A stretch of 64,000 nucleotides of DNA from Nitrospirota bacterium (GTDB lineage Bacteria; Nitrospirota; UBA9217). Position numbers: made by a program. Positions 57,001 through 63,000 of the stretch are shown here, piece after piece. The stretch lies in assembly GCA_963754875.1 (NCBI GenBank), contig CAVWHO010000019.1, forward strand, positions 83,328-147,327, read 5' to 3'. Position 1 is the stretch's first letter. Each line of letters starts with the position of its first letter.

Positions 57001-60000
57001 CGGATGGCGCGGCGTCAACAAGGCGATCATGGGGAGTACGGCGGAGCGGATCATTGCGCATGCGTCCTGCCCCGTACTGATCGTTAAATAGGAGTTCAAG
57101 AAAGCGGGTACCCCGTTTAAGAAGAAATGGGAAAGAGAGGGCGAAAGGGAGATTAAGGAGCAATTTTCTTGATGGGATCTTACCTCCTTTGCCAAATCAT
57201 TCTCCATTTCTCTTGAAAGATTCGCCGGGTGTTTTACCGAGTTCGGTAATGAGAGCGGAGTTGGAAAATATGAAAGGTTATAGAAAAGTTCTTATTGCAG
57301 TGAACGGGTCCAGGGAAGTCCTAAAGCAGGGGATCAAACTCGCGCAGGACGAGAAGACGTGGATCACGGTCGTGAAGGTCGTGCAGCCCTATGAGGGCGA
57401 CCTCGACCTTACGGGCATCAAGAACCTGCATGACGTGTTTGAGGACGGAGGGATCAAGGCCCTTGCCGATATCAGCCGAATCGCAGAGGCTGAAGGGGCG
57501 CTTGTCAAGACCAGGCTGGAAGCAGGAGACGTGCCTGACCGTATTGTGGAGGTTGCACAGGAGGAAAAGTGCGATCTCATCATCATGGGGTCGAAGAAGA
57601 AAAAAGGCATTATGAGCAGGCTCTTCGGCGACCATATTGTCGAAAAAGTCATTGATCGCGCACCGTGCCCGGTGTTTGTTGTTGGGATATAGAGCGATTT
57701 AGTTGTTAAGAGCTGCTAGAAACAGTACATTTTTTTTTGCCAGCGACGATGGAGTATGGTAAATTACAGGATATTGCAATAGTCGGCGGTTACGCCGTTC
57801 ACTTAGTTTATCCTAAAAAGAGCCTGACGAAGGAGTAAATGAACATGTTTGAAGGTTTATTTCAACCGATGCACCTTATCTTGATTCTCCTGATTGTCCT
57901 GATCATCTTCGGCCCGGGAAAGCTTCCTGAACTCGGAGCAGGACTCGGCAAAAGCATCAGGGAATTTAAGAAAGCAATGAAGGAAGGTCAGGAAACTGCA
58001 GCAATAGAAAAGAAGAAAGAAGAAACGAAGGCTTAATCCGTGCCGCGCGAACGATCGAGAAACTGCGTATAGGTGTATATTAAGGAAAACGGCACCTCAG
58101 ATAGATTGAACAGTGCACAAGAAGATGTTTCCTCTGCTTGCCCCTCTACGGGTTCAGATCGGCACCCTTCTCAATGCGTCTGTTGTTTCGAGGCTCGAAA
58201 AACGCCCCCCTTCTTTCCCGGAAATGCCGGACACTTCCTTTTTAAAAGCATTTCTCTTTCGTTGCGCAGGGCTCGCGGAATATCATGACAGTGATAAATA
58301 CTAAATTTAAAAGACTTCTCAAACGCGGTACCCTTTGTCAGGCAGAGTTGGAAAAACTCGCCAGGGAATCAGCGGAAACCAACACCCCCCTGGAGGAGCT
58401 CTTGCTGTCGCGGGGCGTGCCGAAGCACGAGATATTGTTCTGTCTCTCGGAATATTATGGCCTGCCCTTCGTAGAATACGATGAAAGCGTTATCGCCTCT
58501 TATTTCATCATCCTGCGGCTAGACATGGAGAAGCTGAAGCAGGCGCTCTGGTTTCCCCGATCGGTCCGGCAGGGGCGAGCGGAGGTAATTGCATATCGCC
58601 CCGACGACCCCCGGGTAATTGACGATATAAAAAAGACGCTTGGAGTTGAACAGATCGATTTTATCGTCGCCTTTCCCACTGATATCATCCGCATCATCGA
58701 ACATAATTTCGATGTCAATCCATCATTTGGCTTCTCCGGGGGAAGGACACCCCTTGCGCGCGTAAGGACGTATTTCGCTTACCGACGATCAACCTATGCA
58801 CATTACCGGACGTTATTCGCCAAGGGCAGGACCGGCCTTGCGTTTATCAGGACCGGCGTGTCCTTCATTGTTATCGCATTGTTGTTTCTCAGGGTCTTCG
58901 GAGTAGGGCTTTACACCATCATCGAGGCGCCGCTGTTATTTGCCGGCATTGTCATGCTCTATGACGGAATGAAATGGTATTCCCCCGCGCGAAGAATAGC
59001 AAAAAAAACGATTGAGGCCTCCTGCACCGAGCCCACGTGGGGAACCTGCGTCCTGGAAGAGTCGAAGACCCCTCAGGGAGATCCCGCGTTCAATCGCAGC
59101 GGTATTGTGAATGGCGCAGCTGAACTCAGGGCCGGGTGGGAAAATCTTTCTCCGGTCATGAGACGAAGGTTTCTCGCCTCCGACAGGACCGATATGGCAG
59201 AGGAACGGACATCACTTGCGGGACATAGGACCAAACTCGCGCGGGCCAGGACAGGGCTCGCCTTTACGCGGACGGGCATTGCCTTTATCGGACTCGGCGT
59301 CGGATTACTACGGCAATTTCACACGAGCAGATGGACGATCCTCGACGTGTCGCTCATCATGGCAGGTTTCTTGATGTCGGCAGAAGGATTTTACTGGTAT
59401 TTTGGCGGGAGACGGTCTGGAATCGAAAGCTTTAAAGCGGTGATGGAAGCGGTCAATAAGGAAAGCATCTGGGACAAGGTTTTCCCGCTTCGGCATAACC
59501 GCACCGGGTCCAAAAAAGACAATACATATCCGCCGGTCCGTGCTTCTCATATACCGGGCATATGGGCCACCACCGGACTCGCTCTCGAGCGGACTGTTCT
59601 TGCAGACCGGCGATGCGTAATGGCGAGGCTTCGCTCAGTCATGGCGGTGACCCGGACGGGTTTGGCATTTGTCCGGACCGGGATGAGCATTACTGCCGTC
59701 GGTGCGGGCCTTATGGTATATTTCGGTGAGGCGTCGGTCGGCTGGACGATCTTTAATATTTTTTTGATCCTCTCGGGCCTTGCATTGATCATCGACGGAT
59801 ACTACTGGATCACGCCGGCCGAACGAATTCGGGCGCAATACCCCTACTGCTATGGGGATATGGAAATAACCATACCCGATTACGGAGTACCCGCGAACAC
59901 CTGGGGTACGGTTATTTTTAATCACTATGAATAATGAGCTATTGAACATGAGCAATGGTCTGGCGGATGCCGATGTGCAGAGAGGTCCGGAATTTTCCTT

Positions 60001-63000
60001 CCTTGTTGAGACGGGAATCCTGAGCCGGAGCTCGCTTGACGAGGCGACACTCGTCGCCAAGGCACGGGGGATCGATCTCGAGAAGCTGCTTCTCACGGAA
60101 TACGGCGTACCCAAGCACCAGTTGCTCGAAGCGCTGGCTGCATATTACAAATGCCCGTCCATTGAATATGACGAGCGTCTTCCCATCCCCTCCGAGCTTT
60201 TGACCGGGCTCAGCGCCGATGCGCTTTCGACAAACCAGTGGATGCCCGTGATCAAAGACTGGAGCGGAACCGTGGTTATCGCGGCAAGAAATCCAAAAAG
60301 TCCCGCAACGAGGGAAGATGTTAAAAAATACCTAACGGCCGATCGGTTCGAATTCCGGGTCACTCTCGATTCCGATATACAGTGGTTTATCCAGGACTAT
60401 CTTCATGCTAAGCCTGGACTGTTGATCGGCACGGAACGGACGGGCCTCGCCTACTGGCGCAATACCATGGCCCACTGGAGGACGCGGCTCGCCTGCTACC
60501 GTACCGACCTTGCGAGCGCCAGGACCGGACTTGCCTTCCTCAGATGGGGGTTGGGCACGATTGCGCTCTCCAATACCTTGCTCCAGACGAAAAACGCCAG
60601 CAATTCCCCTTATCTGTATTTCGCCGTACTGATTATTGGGGTTGTAATCGCTTTTTACGGTCTCCCCAAGTACCTTAACGTGCGGAAATCCCGCATGACG
60701 CCTCCGGGCCACCAGACGCTCGTGGAGGTAACTGCGGCAACCATTCAATTCCTCGAAAATTATCATCTTTTGGAAAACACGGGAATCAAGCGCCAAACGC
60801 AGGGCACGATGCTCAGCCGGATGGGAGATTTCCTTGCCGACCACAGCACCTATCTGTATCCGTCTCCGTCGAGCAAAGTACGCACCATGTTTGCGCGTGA
60901 ACGAAATGTTCTGGCGGCCCAGCGGACGATAGCCGCGTGTTACCGCACCATCTATGCACGTGCAAGGACAGGCCTGGCCTTCATCCGGACCGGAATATCC
61001 TTCCTGAGCATCGGCATCGGCATCATAAGCTATTTCGGGTTCGGCCTGCTGACGTCATTCAATCTCTGGCTCATTGCCGCAGGGCTTCTCATGGCGATAG
61101 ACGGGACGCTCTGGTACTGGCCCGTGCGGAAGGAACAGGCAGAGATCCCGAGAGGGATCGCTTATCCGGAGTGACCGGCGGGACACGAGTGGGCCGGCGG
61201 TATCGGAATCGGCGGTGTCACAGGTGAGGGAGCACTAATGCACATCCATTCATTCATATATTTCATACATTATGTCAGATATGCCAGACTGCTGGGCAAT
61301 ACGCGTTTCCTCGGTACGATGGTGCTTATGCTGTTGTTCAGCCAGTTCCAGCTTGTCATCGCCAAACCGGCGTCAGCCATGCTCACAACAAAGGCGAACC
61401 ATGACCATATCACCATTGACTTTTTCTATCACGGCAGCACGGTGAGCACGAACGGGGAGTATCGAACGGATCCGGCCCCCCCGGTTGCAATTGATAAAAA
61501 AACATATATGAGCGTTTTCTATCGGCTCAAGCCCGGGATCGTCATGGTCCCGCGGATGAACCGGACCCCGAAACCGAAAAGCGTGTACGGATTTTTGCAC
61601 GCGTGCGCCCGGCATCGGCCATTGCCGTGAAGCGTGACACTTGAGTTATTTCTTTGGACGGGTTTATACTATTTTTAGAGAGGAGATGTACACTGTTATG
61701 AAGAAGTTCTTGCAGTTTCCCCATCCGTTTTTTTCCGCACGCCCCACCTGGAAATGGTTCATTCTGATCAACGTCCTTATCGGCGCGACCATGTCGGCCC
61801 TGGACGTCAGCATTGTCAACGTTGCCATGCCGACCCTGAAAAGCGAGTTCAATGTTTCCATGTCCCTCATCGAATGGGTGGCGATGTCATATATGCTTAC
61901 GCTCACCATTTTTCTTCCCTTTTTCGGAAGACTCGCCGACATGTTCGGCAGATCGAGGCTGTATAACGCCGGTTTTGTTGTCTTTACCGTAGGGTCGCTG
62001 TTTTGCGGCATGTCAACGTCCGCAGTGATGCTTATTGCCGCGCGTGTCATTCAGGCGGTCGGCGCCGGGCTCCTGCAGGCCAATTCCGTTGCGCTGATCA
62101 CGCAGGCTTTCCCGGGGACCGAGCGGGGCAAGGCCATCGGTATCCAGGGCGCTGTCCAGGCCATTGCCATGGCCGTTGGTCCTTTCGTAGGAGGCGTGCT
62201 GATCGCTACGATCGGCTGGCGTTCAGTGTTCTACATCAATATTCCGATCGGCATTGTCGGCACGATCGCTGCCCTGTATATTCTGCCGCCCAATGAAAAA
62301 TCGGCGAAAAAGGAGTCAATCGACTACCTCGGCACGGTGTTTTTCGCTTCGGGTCTTGCATTTCTCGTCCTGGCGTTCAATGAAGTAGTCAATCTCGGAT
62401 GGGGTTCGAATACCATCATGGTTTACTTCCTGAATGCCAGTATCCTGCTCGGTTTGTTTGTGGTAACGGAACTCCGCGTCAAGCATCCGTTGATCGATTT
62501 GAAACTGTTCAAGAACAGCACCTTCCTCATCGGCAACCTGACCGGCATGATGTCCTATTATGTCCTTTTTGCCGTCCTGTTCCTGATGCCGTTTTACCTT
62601 GAGAAGGTGCTCAGCTACAGCCCTGCGCTTACCGGCAGCCTGCTTACCCCCATTCCTCTCGCCATGGCGCTTGTTGCGCCCTTCGCGGGCCATATTTCCG
62701 ACAAGTACGGTGCGAGGATCATGACGGCGAGCGGAATGTTAGTATCCGCGTTCGCCTGTTTTGCCCTCATGTTTTTGGGAGCGCAGGCACACTTGCCGCT
62801 GCTGATCGGTGAACTAATACTGCTGGGCATCGGCATGGGCATGTTCACTCCGCCGAACAACAGCGCGATCATGGGAGCCGCTCCCAGGGAAAAGCTCGGC
62901 CTGGCCGGTGGCGTTCTGAACATGATGAGGTCCCTCGGCCTGATCTTCGGCGTGGACATCTCCGGTTTGATCTTCACCAAACTAGAGCACAGATATCTTG

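Follow-up and report, generated by a model that had tools for sequence, protein, structure and literature searches.

The window, the whole stretch of DNA analysed here, comprises 64,000 nucleotides from a sulfur-cycling bacterium of the phylum Nitrospirota. It contains two adjacent genes on the + strand, A and B, that each join an MshEN/GSPII-fold domain to DUF202 units with two transmembrane (TM) helices apiece, as seen with Pfam and in AlphaFold models. Gene A (58285..59934; 549 aa) encodes the MshEN-fold domain (58285..58713; aa 1-143) followed by three units, A1 (58744..59004; aa 154-240), A2 (59152..59415; aa 290-377), and A3 (59569..59838; aa 429-518). Gene B (59927..61174; 415 aa), the start of which overlaps the stop of A by 8 nt, encodes its own MshEN-fold domain (59978..60409; aa 18-161) and two units, B1 (60425..60688; aa 167-254) and B2 (60875..61141; aa 317-405). 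The two proteins score 56.3 and 32.7 bits against Pfam DUF202 (PF02656), with a gathering cut-off of 23.4, and a six-frame DUF202 search of the genome gave five matches, all in A and B, plus one plain YidH elsewhere. The genome-wide survey's note had described MshEN with three and two DUF202 stretches, which the same Pfam result and the same two open reading frames confirm. The near-universal fusion that it reported among the best homologs also holds, with both domains present in 118/120 (the best 120 of 966). Our literature search found no paper on the pair.

In the AlphaFold models each DUF202 unit consists of two long helices. The first has 52, 55, and 50 residues in A and 54 and 54 in B, so that the very long helices noted earlier are found in all five units. 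This helix, which opens each hairpin, carries an arginine at every seventh residue: at 154, 161, 168, 175, 182, and 189 in A1, ahead of its TM hairpin, at 294-329 in A2 (six rings), at 436-464 in A3 (five rings), at 171-206 in B1 (six rings), and at 319-354 in B2 (six rings). These 29 positions hold arginine in 1997/2001 alignment cells, with every ring position conserved in 68-69 of the 69 rows. As a control for chance, we scanned the genome's 7225 open frames that encode at least 150 aa, and a run of more than three R-[T/S/N] heptads occurs only in A and B, both of which reach six. For each heptad, a helix in the alignment has a net charge of +0.6 to +1.3, and ladders in the subfamily are 5 to 29 heptads long.

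The MshEN fold of A and B is shared with MshE, PilF, and the Xanthomonas domains PilB-N and XpsE-N. The model of B matches V. cholerae MshE (5HTL) with Z 14.3 (rmsd 3.7, 139 residues aligned), the Z reported before, and T. thermophilus PilF GSPII-B is matched with a Foldseek E of 5.7e-5. In the MshE/PilF type the fold is fused to an ATPase, whereas in A and B it is fused to membrane hairpins. Passages of PMC5013675 give the c-di-GMP receptor motif as a tandem RLGxx(L/V/I)(L/V/I)xxG...LxxxLxxQ. The pattern R[LI]Gxx[LVI][LVI] was found in 0/69 rows of A and 1/69 rows of B, and the c-di-GMP motif model NF053729 scores 18 bits for B against a cut-off of 38 and has no match in A. The earlier description of the RLG motif as degenerate thus extends over 69 A and 69 B rows, and its absence resembles the state of XpsE-N, described in passages of the same paper as non-binding. 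Gating by c-di-GMP was therefore rejected. The MshEN domains probably serve for docking rather than as c-di-GMP sensors. The first ~40 aa of A are missing in 6/69 orthologs.

Linkage and co-inheritance of A and B

B lies directly 3' of an A-type gene in 75 of 78 loci, and the remaining three (L043, L044, and L077) stop at a contig edge. The earlier count was 71/78, with three of the seven exceptions at contig edges and a third MshEN-DUF202 paralog in four loci; the difference corresponds to these four, which have the order A-A'-B and 3+3+2 units. In every case A' is a copy with three units that accompanies a single B. In B-centred loci A precedes B in 30/30, and B starts within -17 to +13 nt of the A stop in 74/75. 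B is broken or cut in four of the 75 loci (L003, L045, L046, and L060). The apparent B-kinase fusion in L045 has lost the last membrane helices of B and looks like frameshift read-through, and two apparent three-unit B genes (L021 and L042) were rejected as split matches on one ladder.

A is present in all 52 genomes picked as carriers and in 0/15 relatives without a B match, and neither gene was found without its partner wherever DNA was available. Exactly five repeat-profile matches occur in each of five other carrier genomes, and a tree separates the five unit positions into five groups that each span phyla. A protein with A and B fused was not seen among proteins of 962-2745 aa, which is weak evidence, and the best 150 of 3663 representative matches include no five-unit member of the A/B subfamily. 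dsrA, considered as a marker of the pair, occurs in 52/53 carriers but also in 12/14 non-carrier relatives, and therefore marks the hosts rather than the pair. A promoter scan gave 9 sites with 8.2 expected.

The modelled five-helix ring and its comparison with VTC

DUF202/YidH proteins are widespread without an established bacterial function, and the VTC polyphosphate channel provides their only mechanistically understood members. Yeast VTC (three Vtc1, Vtc3, and Vtc4; PDB 7YTJ, 8I6V, and 9UMG) has the DUF202 module and five units, as do A and B, but distributes them over five chains rather than two. VTC has three TM helices per unit and 15 in total, compared with two per unit and 10 in total in A and B, and two basic rings where A and B have 5-6 arginine rings. 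In both, basic residues on the inner helix are spaced by seven residues. Passages of PMC9911596 and bioRxiv 2023.01.27.525886 identify the VTC rings as K24 and R31. Aligned through the plain YidH of this genome, A R322 corresponds to Vtc1 R31 and A R315 to K24, across a YidH-Vtc1 match that is weak (E 0.21-0.54); a GLGVGL sequence downstream of the ladder, common to unit A2 and Vtc1, is in the same register. The position equivalent to E30 is G, A, S, or T in 69/69 rows of all five units, and the YidH arginine at the end of TM2, an R83-like position, aligns to tryptophan in A and B. Consequently, the ionic lock E30-R83 of VTC is absent. In all five units most rows have a small residue (Ala, Ser, or Gly) in place of the VTC gate residue M42. 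VTC also has a TTM polymerase and an SPX domain, while A and B have neither and carry MshEN-fold domains instead. The VTC polymerase domain PF09359 had no match in this genome, which is 90% complete, and none above the cut-off in 80 other genomes, 52 of them carriers. Therefore A/B is not a VTC: TM3, the ionic lock, and the VTC polymerase (81 genomes) are absent, ppk1 is rare, and the c-di-GMP motif is lost. The likeness to VTC proposed in the survey's note stands for the five units and is joined by the register of the basic rings; the lack of a third membrane helix, of the ionic lock, and of the hydrophobic gate had escaped that note.

A complex model of A with B gave an ipSAE of 0.72, compared with 0.00 for the best control. 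The mark used is reached by 116/157 solved complexes and 2/215 mismatched pairs and is only rough with our own alignments, and near relatives of a genuine partner frequently pass as well (10/12 colicin pairs). At least 69% of contacts agree between runs, with a partner pLDDT of at least 58. The interfaces in the model are A1-B2 and A3-B1, with no contact to B listed for A2, as would be expected of a closed five-helix ring in which A2 lies in the middle. The interfaces use the b/e/f faces of A1 and B1 and the d/g faces of A3 and B2, which lie symmetrically around position a; from helix geometry this pattern would fit a one-handed barrel with arginine inward. The modelling thus suggests an A+B heterodimer and closure of the ring, and gives the five units, previously compared with VTC by number, a predicted arrangement with two interfaces of such a ring. 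Several points count against it. The A3-B1 seam has a one-heptad offset by the RTG anchors, which may be a model error; the model's pass may be an echo of solved VTC structures; four loci have 3+3+2 units; and the repeat profile found no VTC chain in the PDB even at E 10, with one unrelated TetR match at E 0.15. Fold searches with the full models of A and B again listed no VTC chain, as the note had said. MshEN and generic helical bundles take up their lists, and we do not take this as evidence of a different fold.

Neighbouring genes, related proteins, and possible functions

Upstream of A on the + strand lie a TauE/SafE exporter and a TIGR02186-type (Alph_Pro_TM) membrane protein (54469..56225), upstream members of the module, followed by two universal stress protein (Usp) genes (56228..57692; Pfam). 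Between B and the kinase, genes for a DHA2-type MFS transporter and for a small membrane protein (61641..63876, + strand) intervene. The contig ends with the window, and the kinase, receiver, and PEP-synthase-like genes start at the end of another contig (C4, L110), which from gene order in relatives is probably the continuation. Across loci with room, a histidine kinase lies downstream in 53/63, overlapping the B stop in 10/54, a receiver in 53/60, and a PEP-synthase-like dikinase in 40/55. TauE is upstream in 41/78 loci (41/70 with room), the TIGR02186-type protein in 43/72 with room, and Usp in 37/78, with a 287-aa Usp in 36/73 with room. TauE and Usp were singled out earlier (Usp with 38), but the tightest partners are the kinase, the receiver, and the PEP-synthase-like enzyme. 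The C-terminal ~290 aa of the last have no Pfam or PDB match and only unnamed Atlas clusters. Desulfobacterota modules of TauE, TIGR02186, and PEP-synthase-like genes (for example Dissulfuribacter DITHS69_1988-1990) consist of the same gene types; passages of PMC13490349 report that these three genes rise together under thiosulfate disproportionation, and the main text of that paper does not mention DUF202.

Two proteins, 47-49% identical, combine five DUF202 units of two TM helices each in a single chain and branch separately from A/B in the tree; one of them, P0187, was not found in viral contigs and has only DUF202 clusters in the ESM Atlas (0.77-0.79). Single-unit sisters with 12-29 Arg heptads group with the five A/B units (support 94/86), precede the same kinase-receiver pair in 3/14 loci, and have a dikinase nearby in 8/14. 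One sister subgroup is fused to a receiver, and a dikinase follows in 6/6 loci with downstream DNA, L119 being judged from the dikinase N-terminus only. In P0261, a fusion of DUF202, receiver, and dikinase, the receiver is cut, and we do not trust the fusion; the high-count matches P0202, P0223, P0209, P0228, and P0247 are unrelated heptad repeats without a membrane hairpin. Together with the 29 invariant arginines of the two-chain form, the single-chain and long single-unit forms suggest that a five-fold Arg-lined assembly may be general in DUF202.

We think it probable, with considerable reservation, that A and B form a two-component-regulated anion conduit in a pseudo-pentameric, Arg-lined barrel. 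The proteins would assemble as a 1:1 inner-membrane heterodimer, with the five long helices closing in the order A1-A2-A3-B1-B2 and the five second helices outside. Arginine at heptad position a would face the axis, placing 5-6 positive rings from the membrane ~4-5 nm into the cytoplasm and forming a VTC-pore-like conduit for a multiply charged oxyanion. A phosphate-type anion (phosphate, pyrophosphate, or oligophosphate) or an oxyanion of sulfur would be the most likely cargo. Switching of the conduit would probably fall to the histidine kinase and the stand-alone receiver encoded alongside, and the dikinase would be a likely metabolic partner. For the heterodimeric pseudo-pentameric anion channel proposed in the note, the pseudo-pentamer has gained support from the complex-model topology, the Vtc1 register, and the five-unit single-chain lineage; the open pore, anion conduction, cargo, direction, and receiver gating are what we infer. 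If correct, sulfate reducers and cable bacteria would have a new anion conduit, and a large group of PEP-synthase-like enzymes, so far unassigned, would gain a testable partner. With only two genes, the pair is well suited to structural work and flux assays.

Ladders of 12-29 heptads, as in the sisters, seem longer than a small-ion channel would need, which counts against a conduit. The barrel could instead be real and non-conducting, an anion-loaded rod with a role as oxyanion sensor or co-sensor, as spacer, or as scaffold, from which the adjacent membrane histidine kinase would receive its signal. The closeness of the kinase to B, the free variation of ladder length, and the sister type fused to a receiver suit this idea, but we judge it unlikely: the small residues at the M42 position fit an unobstructed path, the fusion of a receiver to a membrane subunit looks more like a phosphorylation-controlled output than a sensor, and the kinase is missing in 10/63 loci with room. 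It is very improbable that the 3+2 count is coincidental and that the proteins assemble otherwise, as homodimers, as rings of 6 or 8 units, or as rings that the plain YidH of this genome completes. A second three-unit gene in 4/78 loci and the presence of this YidH would allow it, and the separate grouping of the five unit positions, the invariable A' beside a single B, the finding of neither A nor B alone where DNA was available, the five profile matches in each of five other carrier genomes, and a model that closes with A and B alone argue for the 3+2 barrel.

The cargo of an Arg-lined conduit could also be made locally. As a general function we discarded ordinary export of polyphosphate through PPK1 or VTC; ppk1 occurs in only 6/53 carriers and the VTC polymerase in none; PPK2 was not found in this genome, in keeping with the earlier statement that it has no polyphosphate kinase. 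In a bacterial counterpart of the complete VTC machine, the PEP-synthase-like enzyme would polymerise or activate a phosphate chain that passes through the tube to the periplasm. The dikinase after the pair, and directly after the single-unit receiver fusion, its unmatched C-terminal region, the scarcity of ppk1, and the absence of the VTC polymerase from all carriers searched favour this proposal, and in a pentamer the ladder charge would roughly balance extended polyphosphate. We nevertheless regard it as improbable. No dikinase is known to make polyphosphate. The enzyme is missing in 15/55 loci with room, non-carrier relatives also lack ppk1 (0/15), and similar dikinases stand beside TauE in other modules too (passages of PMC13490349). 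In its widest form, also a long shot, sulfur-cycling anaerobes without known polyphosphate kinases would use the dikinase to make a polyanion and export it through an Arg-lined five-helix tube, adjustable in length from 5 to 29 rings (at most ~30 nm) and controlled by the two-component pair, a prokaryotic VTC counterpart with a different enzyme.

Single-domain YidH/DUF202 proteins belong to the same Pfam family as A and B (PF02656), and their ERT-LAW-RT motif aligns to the last two A/B rings (probability 89%). They have three hydrophobic segments and a short ladder, and branch apart from the A/B subfamily. In the literature, YidH was a match in a D-alanine screen without export activity (passages of PMC10299036), and its deletion causes sensitivity to H2O2 (passages of PMC4054840).

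Architecture and inheritance of the gene pair

Gene A (549 aa; window 58285-59934, + strand) and gene B (415 aa; 59927-61174, + strand) overlap by 8 nt. Pfam detects an MshEN domain in both, with three DUF202 stretches in A (units A1 to A3) and two in B (B1 and B2), the same fusions and counts described by the genome-wide survey's note. Every unit opens with a run of Arg residues at 7-residue spacing, forming five rings in A3 and six in each of A1, A2, B1, and B2. Orthologs were aligned for both genes, 69 for A and 69 for B, comprising the window and the 68 of 78 loci whose genes are intact; the 29 ring positions hold Arg in 1997 of 2001 cells, and none of the other open frames of the genome (7225 scanned) contains such a 7-residue-spaced run longer than three. 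AlphaFold2 models of A and B (pLDDT 81 and 77, pTM 0.72 and 0.55, respectively) give each unit two helices, the first of 50-55 residues and the second of 27-41, and a third membrane helix is absent from every unit. Neither protein is covered by an NCBIfam model. Besides these five DUF202 matches, the genome (4.3 Mb, 90% complete) has one more, a plain YidH of 135 aa (L079:6514-6921, minus strand of contig C13) that sequence searches link to Vtc1.

Fold searches with the models clearly identify both MshEN domains. The note had called their c-di-GMP-binding RLG motif degenerate, and the motif, as defined in PMC5013675, is absent, with a match in 0 of 69 A and 1 of 69 B ortholog rows. In six of the 69 A orthologs, among them the three from cable bacteria, most of the first 35 residues are missing. 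Strong conservation is seen at other residues (K47-H48-E49 and W89-x-P91 in A; R47-G48 and Y81-D82-E83 in B) and would suit a role in protein docking; for PilB-N, binding to PilZ is indicated by the title of structure 7LKO.

The A/B pair is a real observation. Among 78 A-centred loci, taken from the 80 top-ranked of 105 confirmed stretches, B lies directly downstream of an A-type gene in 75, and the remaining three stop at a contig edge, which bears out the reported pairing across phyla. The hosts are Nitrospirota, Desulfobacterota (including three Ca. Electronema), and, by record label, a few Proteobacteria. An in-frame start of B falls between -17 and +13 nt of the A stop in 74 of the 75 loci, and B is broken or cut in four. 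Four loci (L017, L018, L019, and L064) carry a second three-unit gene, A', in a tandem A-A'-B arrangement, one of them frameshifted. In a reciprocal search, 43 of 301 genomes of the phylum gave a strong match to B, each with at least five matches, and A lies upstream of B in all 30 loci returned. A is present in 52/52 genomes picked as carriers, 0/15 same-family genomes with no B match, and 0/13 genomes with related single-unit genes. Because the carriers are kin rather than independent, these counts are descriptions and not tests. One genome (G262) has two complete A-B pairs on separate contigs (L111 and L112).

Predicted complex and its relation to VTC

The membrane parts of A (residues 140-549) and B (158-415), each with its own alignment, were modelled as a complex, giving an ipSAE of 0.72, whereas the highest-scoring of three controls reached 0.00. 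The ipSAE mark is passed by 116/157 solved complexes and 2/215 mismatched pairs, counts that are only a rough guide here. Close cousins of true partners often pass too, and solved rings of VTC, the yeast polyphosphate polymerase/translocase complex, may have aided the score. Contact agreement between runs was at least 69%, and partner pLDDT at least 58. The pattern of interfaces says more than the score does: A1 and B2 run alongside each other through their long helices, as do A3 and B1, the two edge contacts that a closed ring A1-A2-A3-B1-B2 requires, and A2 does not figure among the listed contacts. These contacts use heptad positions a, b, e, and f in A1 and B1, and a, d, e, and g in A3 and B2. 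The contact faces flank position a on both sides, so that the ring Arg residues would face the axis of the predicted A+B barrel. With the RTG anchors as reference, the model sets the A3-B1 seam about one heptad out of step with B2-A1. The model therefore favors the heterodimeric pseudo-pentamer proposed in the survey's note, with conduction still at the level of a proposal.

VTC is described as a pentamer of 3:1:1 composition that has 15 membrane helices and a pore lined by its five TM1 helices, with two basic rings formed by K24 and R31 (PMC9911596; bioRxiv 10.1101/2023.01.27.525886), and Vtc proteins are annotated as DUF202 (PMC4400040; PMC7283521). A search of the PDB with the repeat profile did not find VTC. 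The plain YidH aligns to the repeat profile with 89% probability, and its top-ranked PDB matches are Vtc1 chains, at weak E-values of 0.21-0.54. This bridge pairs A R322 with Vtc1 R31 and A R315 with K24, and the motif GLGVGL, 14 residues downstream, is identical in unit A2 and Vtc1. Compared with VTC, the pair retains both basic rings and has one extra deeper ring and two or three extra rings on the cytoplasmic side, but its units have no TM3, the position of the ionic-lock residue E30 is G, A, S, or T in all A/B rows, and that of the M42 gate is mostly S, A, or G. No VTC polymerase domain scores above cut-off in this genome or in 80 others, and ppk1 occurs in only 6/53 carriers, 0/13 single-unit genomes, and 0/15 controls. 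On these comparisons, the pair would act like the VTC pore without being a VTC complex. Literature searches, whose scope leaves out most subscription journals, returned no paper joining any two of MshEN, DUF202, YidH, and PF02656, linking YidH with polyphosphate, or naming Vtc1 together with both a bacterial homolog and prokaryotes.

Gene neighborhood and possible function

Among loci with enough DNA on the side in question, the pair is followed by a membrane histidine kinase (53/63), a stand-alone receiver (53/60), and a ~860-aa PPDK_N/PEP-utilizer protein, or dikinase (40/55), and preceded by genes for TauE (41/70), TIGR02186 (43/72), and Usp (36/73). The window stops at the contig end, and a kinase, receiver, and dikinase begin at one end of contig C4, which makes it probable that the module is complete in this genome across two contigs. 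The dikinase has ATP-binding and phosphohistidine domains as in PEP synthase and falls below every NCBIfam cut-off; its C-terminal domain (residues 560-852 of the dikinase at L201:10022-12580) has no Pfam or PDB match. Of 14 single-unit sister genes, three lie directly upstream of a kinase and receiver of the type found with A/B, eight have a dikinase nearby, and three have none of these neighbors; in one subgroup the unit carries a receiver in the same chain, and the dikinase gene comes directly after it.

We consider it fairly probable that A and B form a regulated, positively charged conduit through which a multiply charged oxyanion would pass. A non-conducting anion sensor, or a scaffold for the kinase found beside most pairs, is an unlikely alternative reading of the same Arg-rich barrel. 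The recurrent dikinase could instead couple synthesis to export in a single machine with A+B, which we regard as improbable, and assembly in stoichiometries other than that of the modelled ring seems more doubtful still. As candidate cargo of the favored conduit, ancestry and ladder length would point to a phosphate-type anion, and neighbors and hosts to a sulfur oxyanion. In Dissulfuribacter, adjacent genes for TauE, its partner, and PEP synthase are reported to be upregulated during thiosulfate disproportionation (PMC13490349). dsrA is present in 52/53 carriers, yet also in 12/14 relatives without the pair; the copy in this genome sits at about 17400-18557 of the window (contig 100727-101884), upstream of A and B by ~40 kb.

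A TatA/E-type gene (57845-58036) lies just upstream of A. After B, positions 61238-61630 hold a truncated copy of the 5' end of the TIGR02186-type gene at 55395-56225 (67% identity over 85 aa), probably a rearrangement relic; a similar ORF follows B in four related loci. A sigma-54 regulator and an upstream sensor kinase (46913-50753), as well as the C4 dikinase (L110:10908-13569), are each broken up into overlapping frames, and assembly indels are the probable cause.

The wider DUF202 family

A single-unit profile searched against 1.84 billion representatives gave 3663 matches, of which the best 150 were examined: three-unit and two-unit proteins rank at the top, and no five-unit member of the A/B subfamily is among them. 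A sample of 401 genomes from the phylum to which one Desulfobacterota carrier belongs gave matches in 30, six with the A/B pair, 13 with single-unit ladder genes, and the remainder with short YidH-like genes or fragments (one sequence read). The single-unit sisters share the two-helix type and have longer ladders: the 14 genes (L198-L211; for example L207:2394-3347, L210:6928-7860, and L201:6922-8070) contain 12 to 29 unbroken Arg heptads with the consensus R-T-E/D-L-A, predicted to form stalks as long as ~30 nm. Even close relatives differ in ladder length (12 in L202 and 17 in L203). A gene for a cytidylate-kinase-like protein directly precedes many of the single-unit ladder genes: Pfam assigns it in L200 (L200:3393-4229; PF13189, with a weak BON match), and similar N-termini mark it in L201-L204, L206, L209, and L211.

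Two proteins on short contigs, P0187 and P0276, are single chains of five two-helix DUF202 units and are 47-49% identical; Pfam counts four stretches in P0187. In a weakly resolved tree of 68 units and 69 columns, each of the five A/B positions forms its own group, the single-unit sisters group with the A/B units (94/86), and the five-unit chains split off separately (96/88). The count of five units probably arose twice, the second case comprising these two sequences only. P0256 is a fragment of a different multi-unit DUF202 type. P0245 and P0255 are YidH-type DUF202 proteins with 9-heptad ladders, the former as a fusion with a sodium/bile-acid symporter domain.
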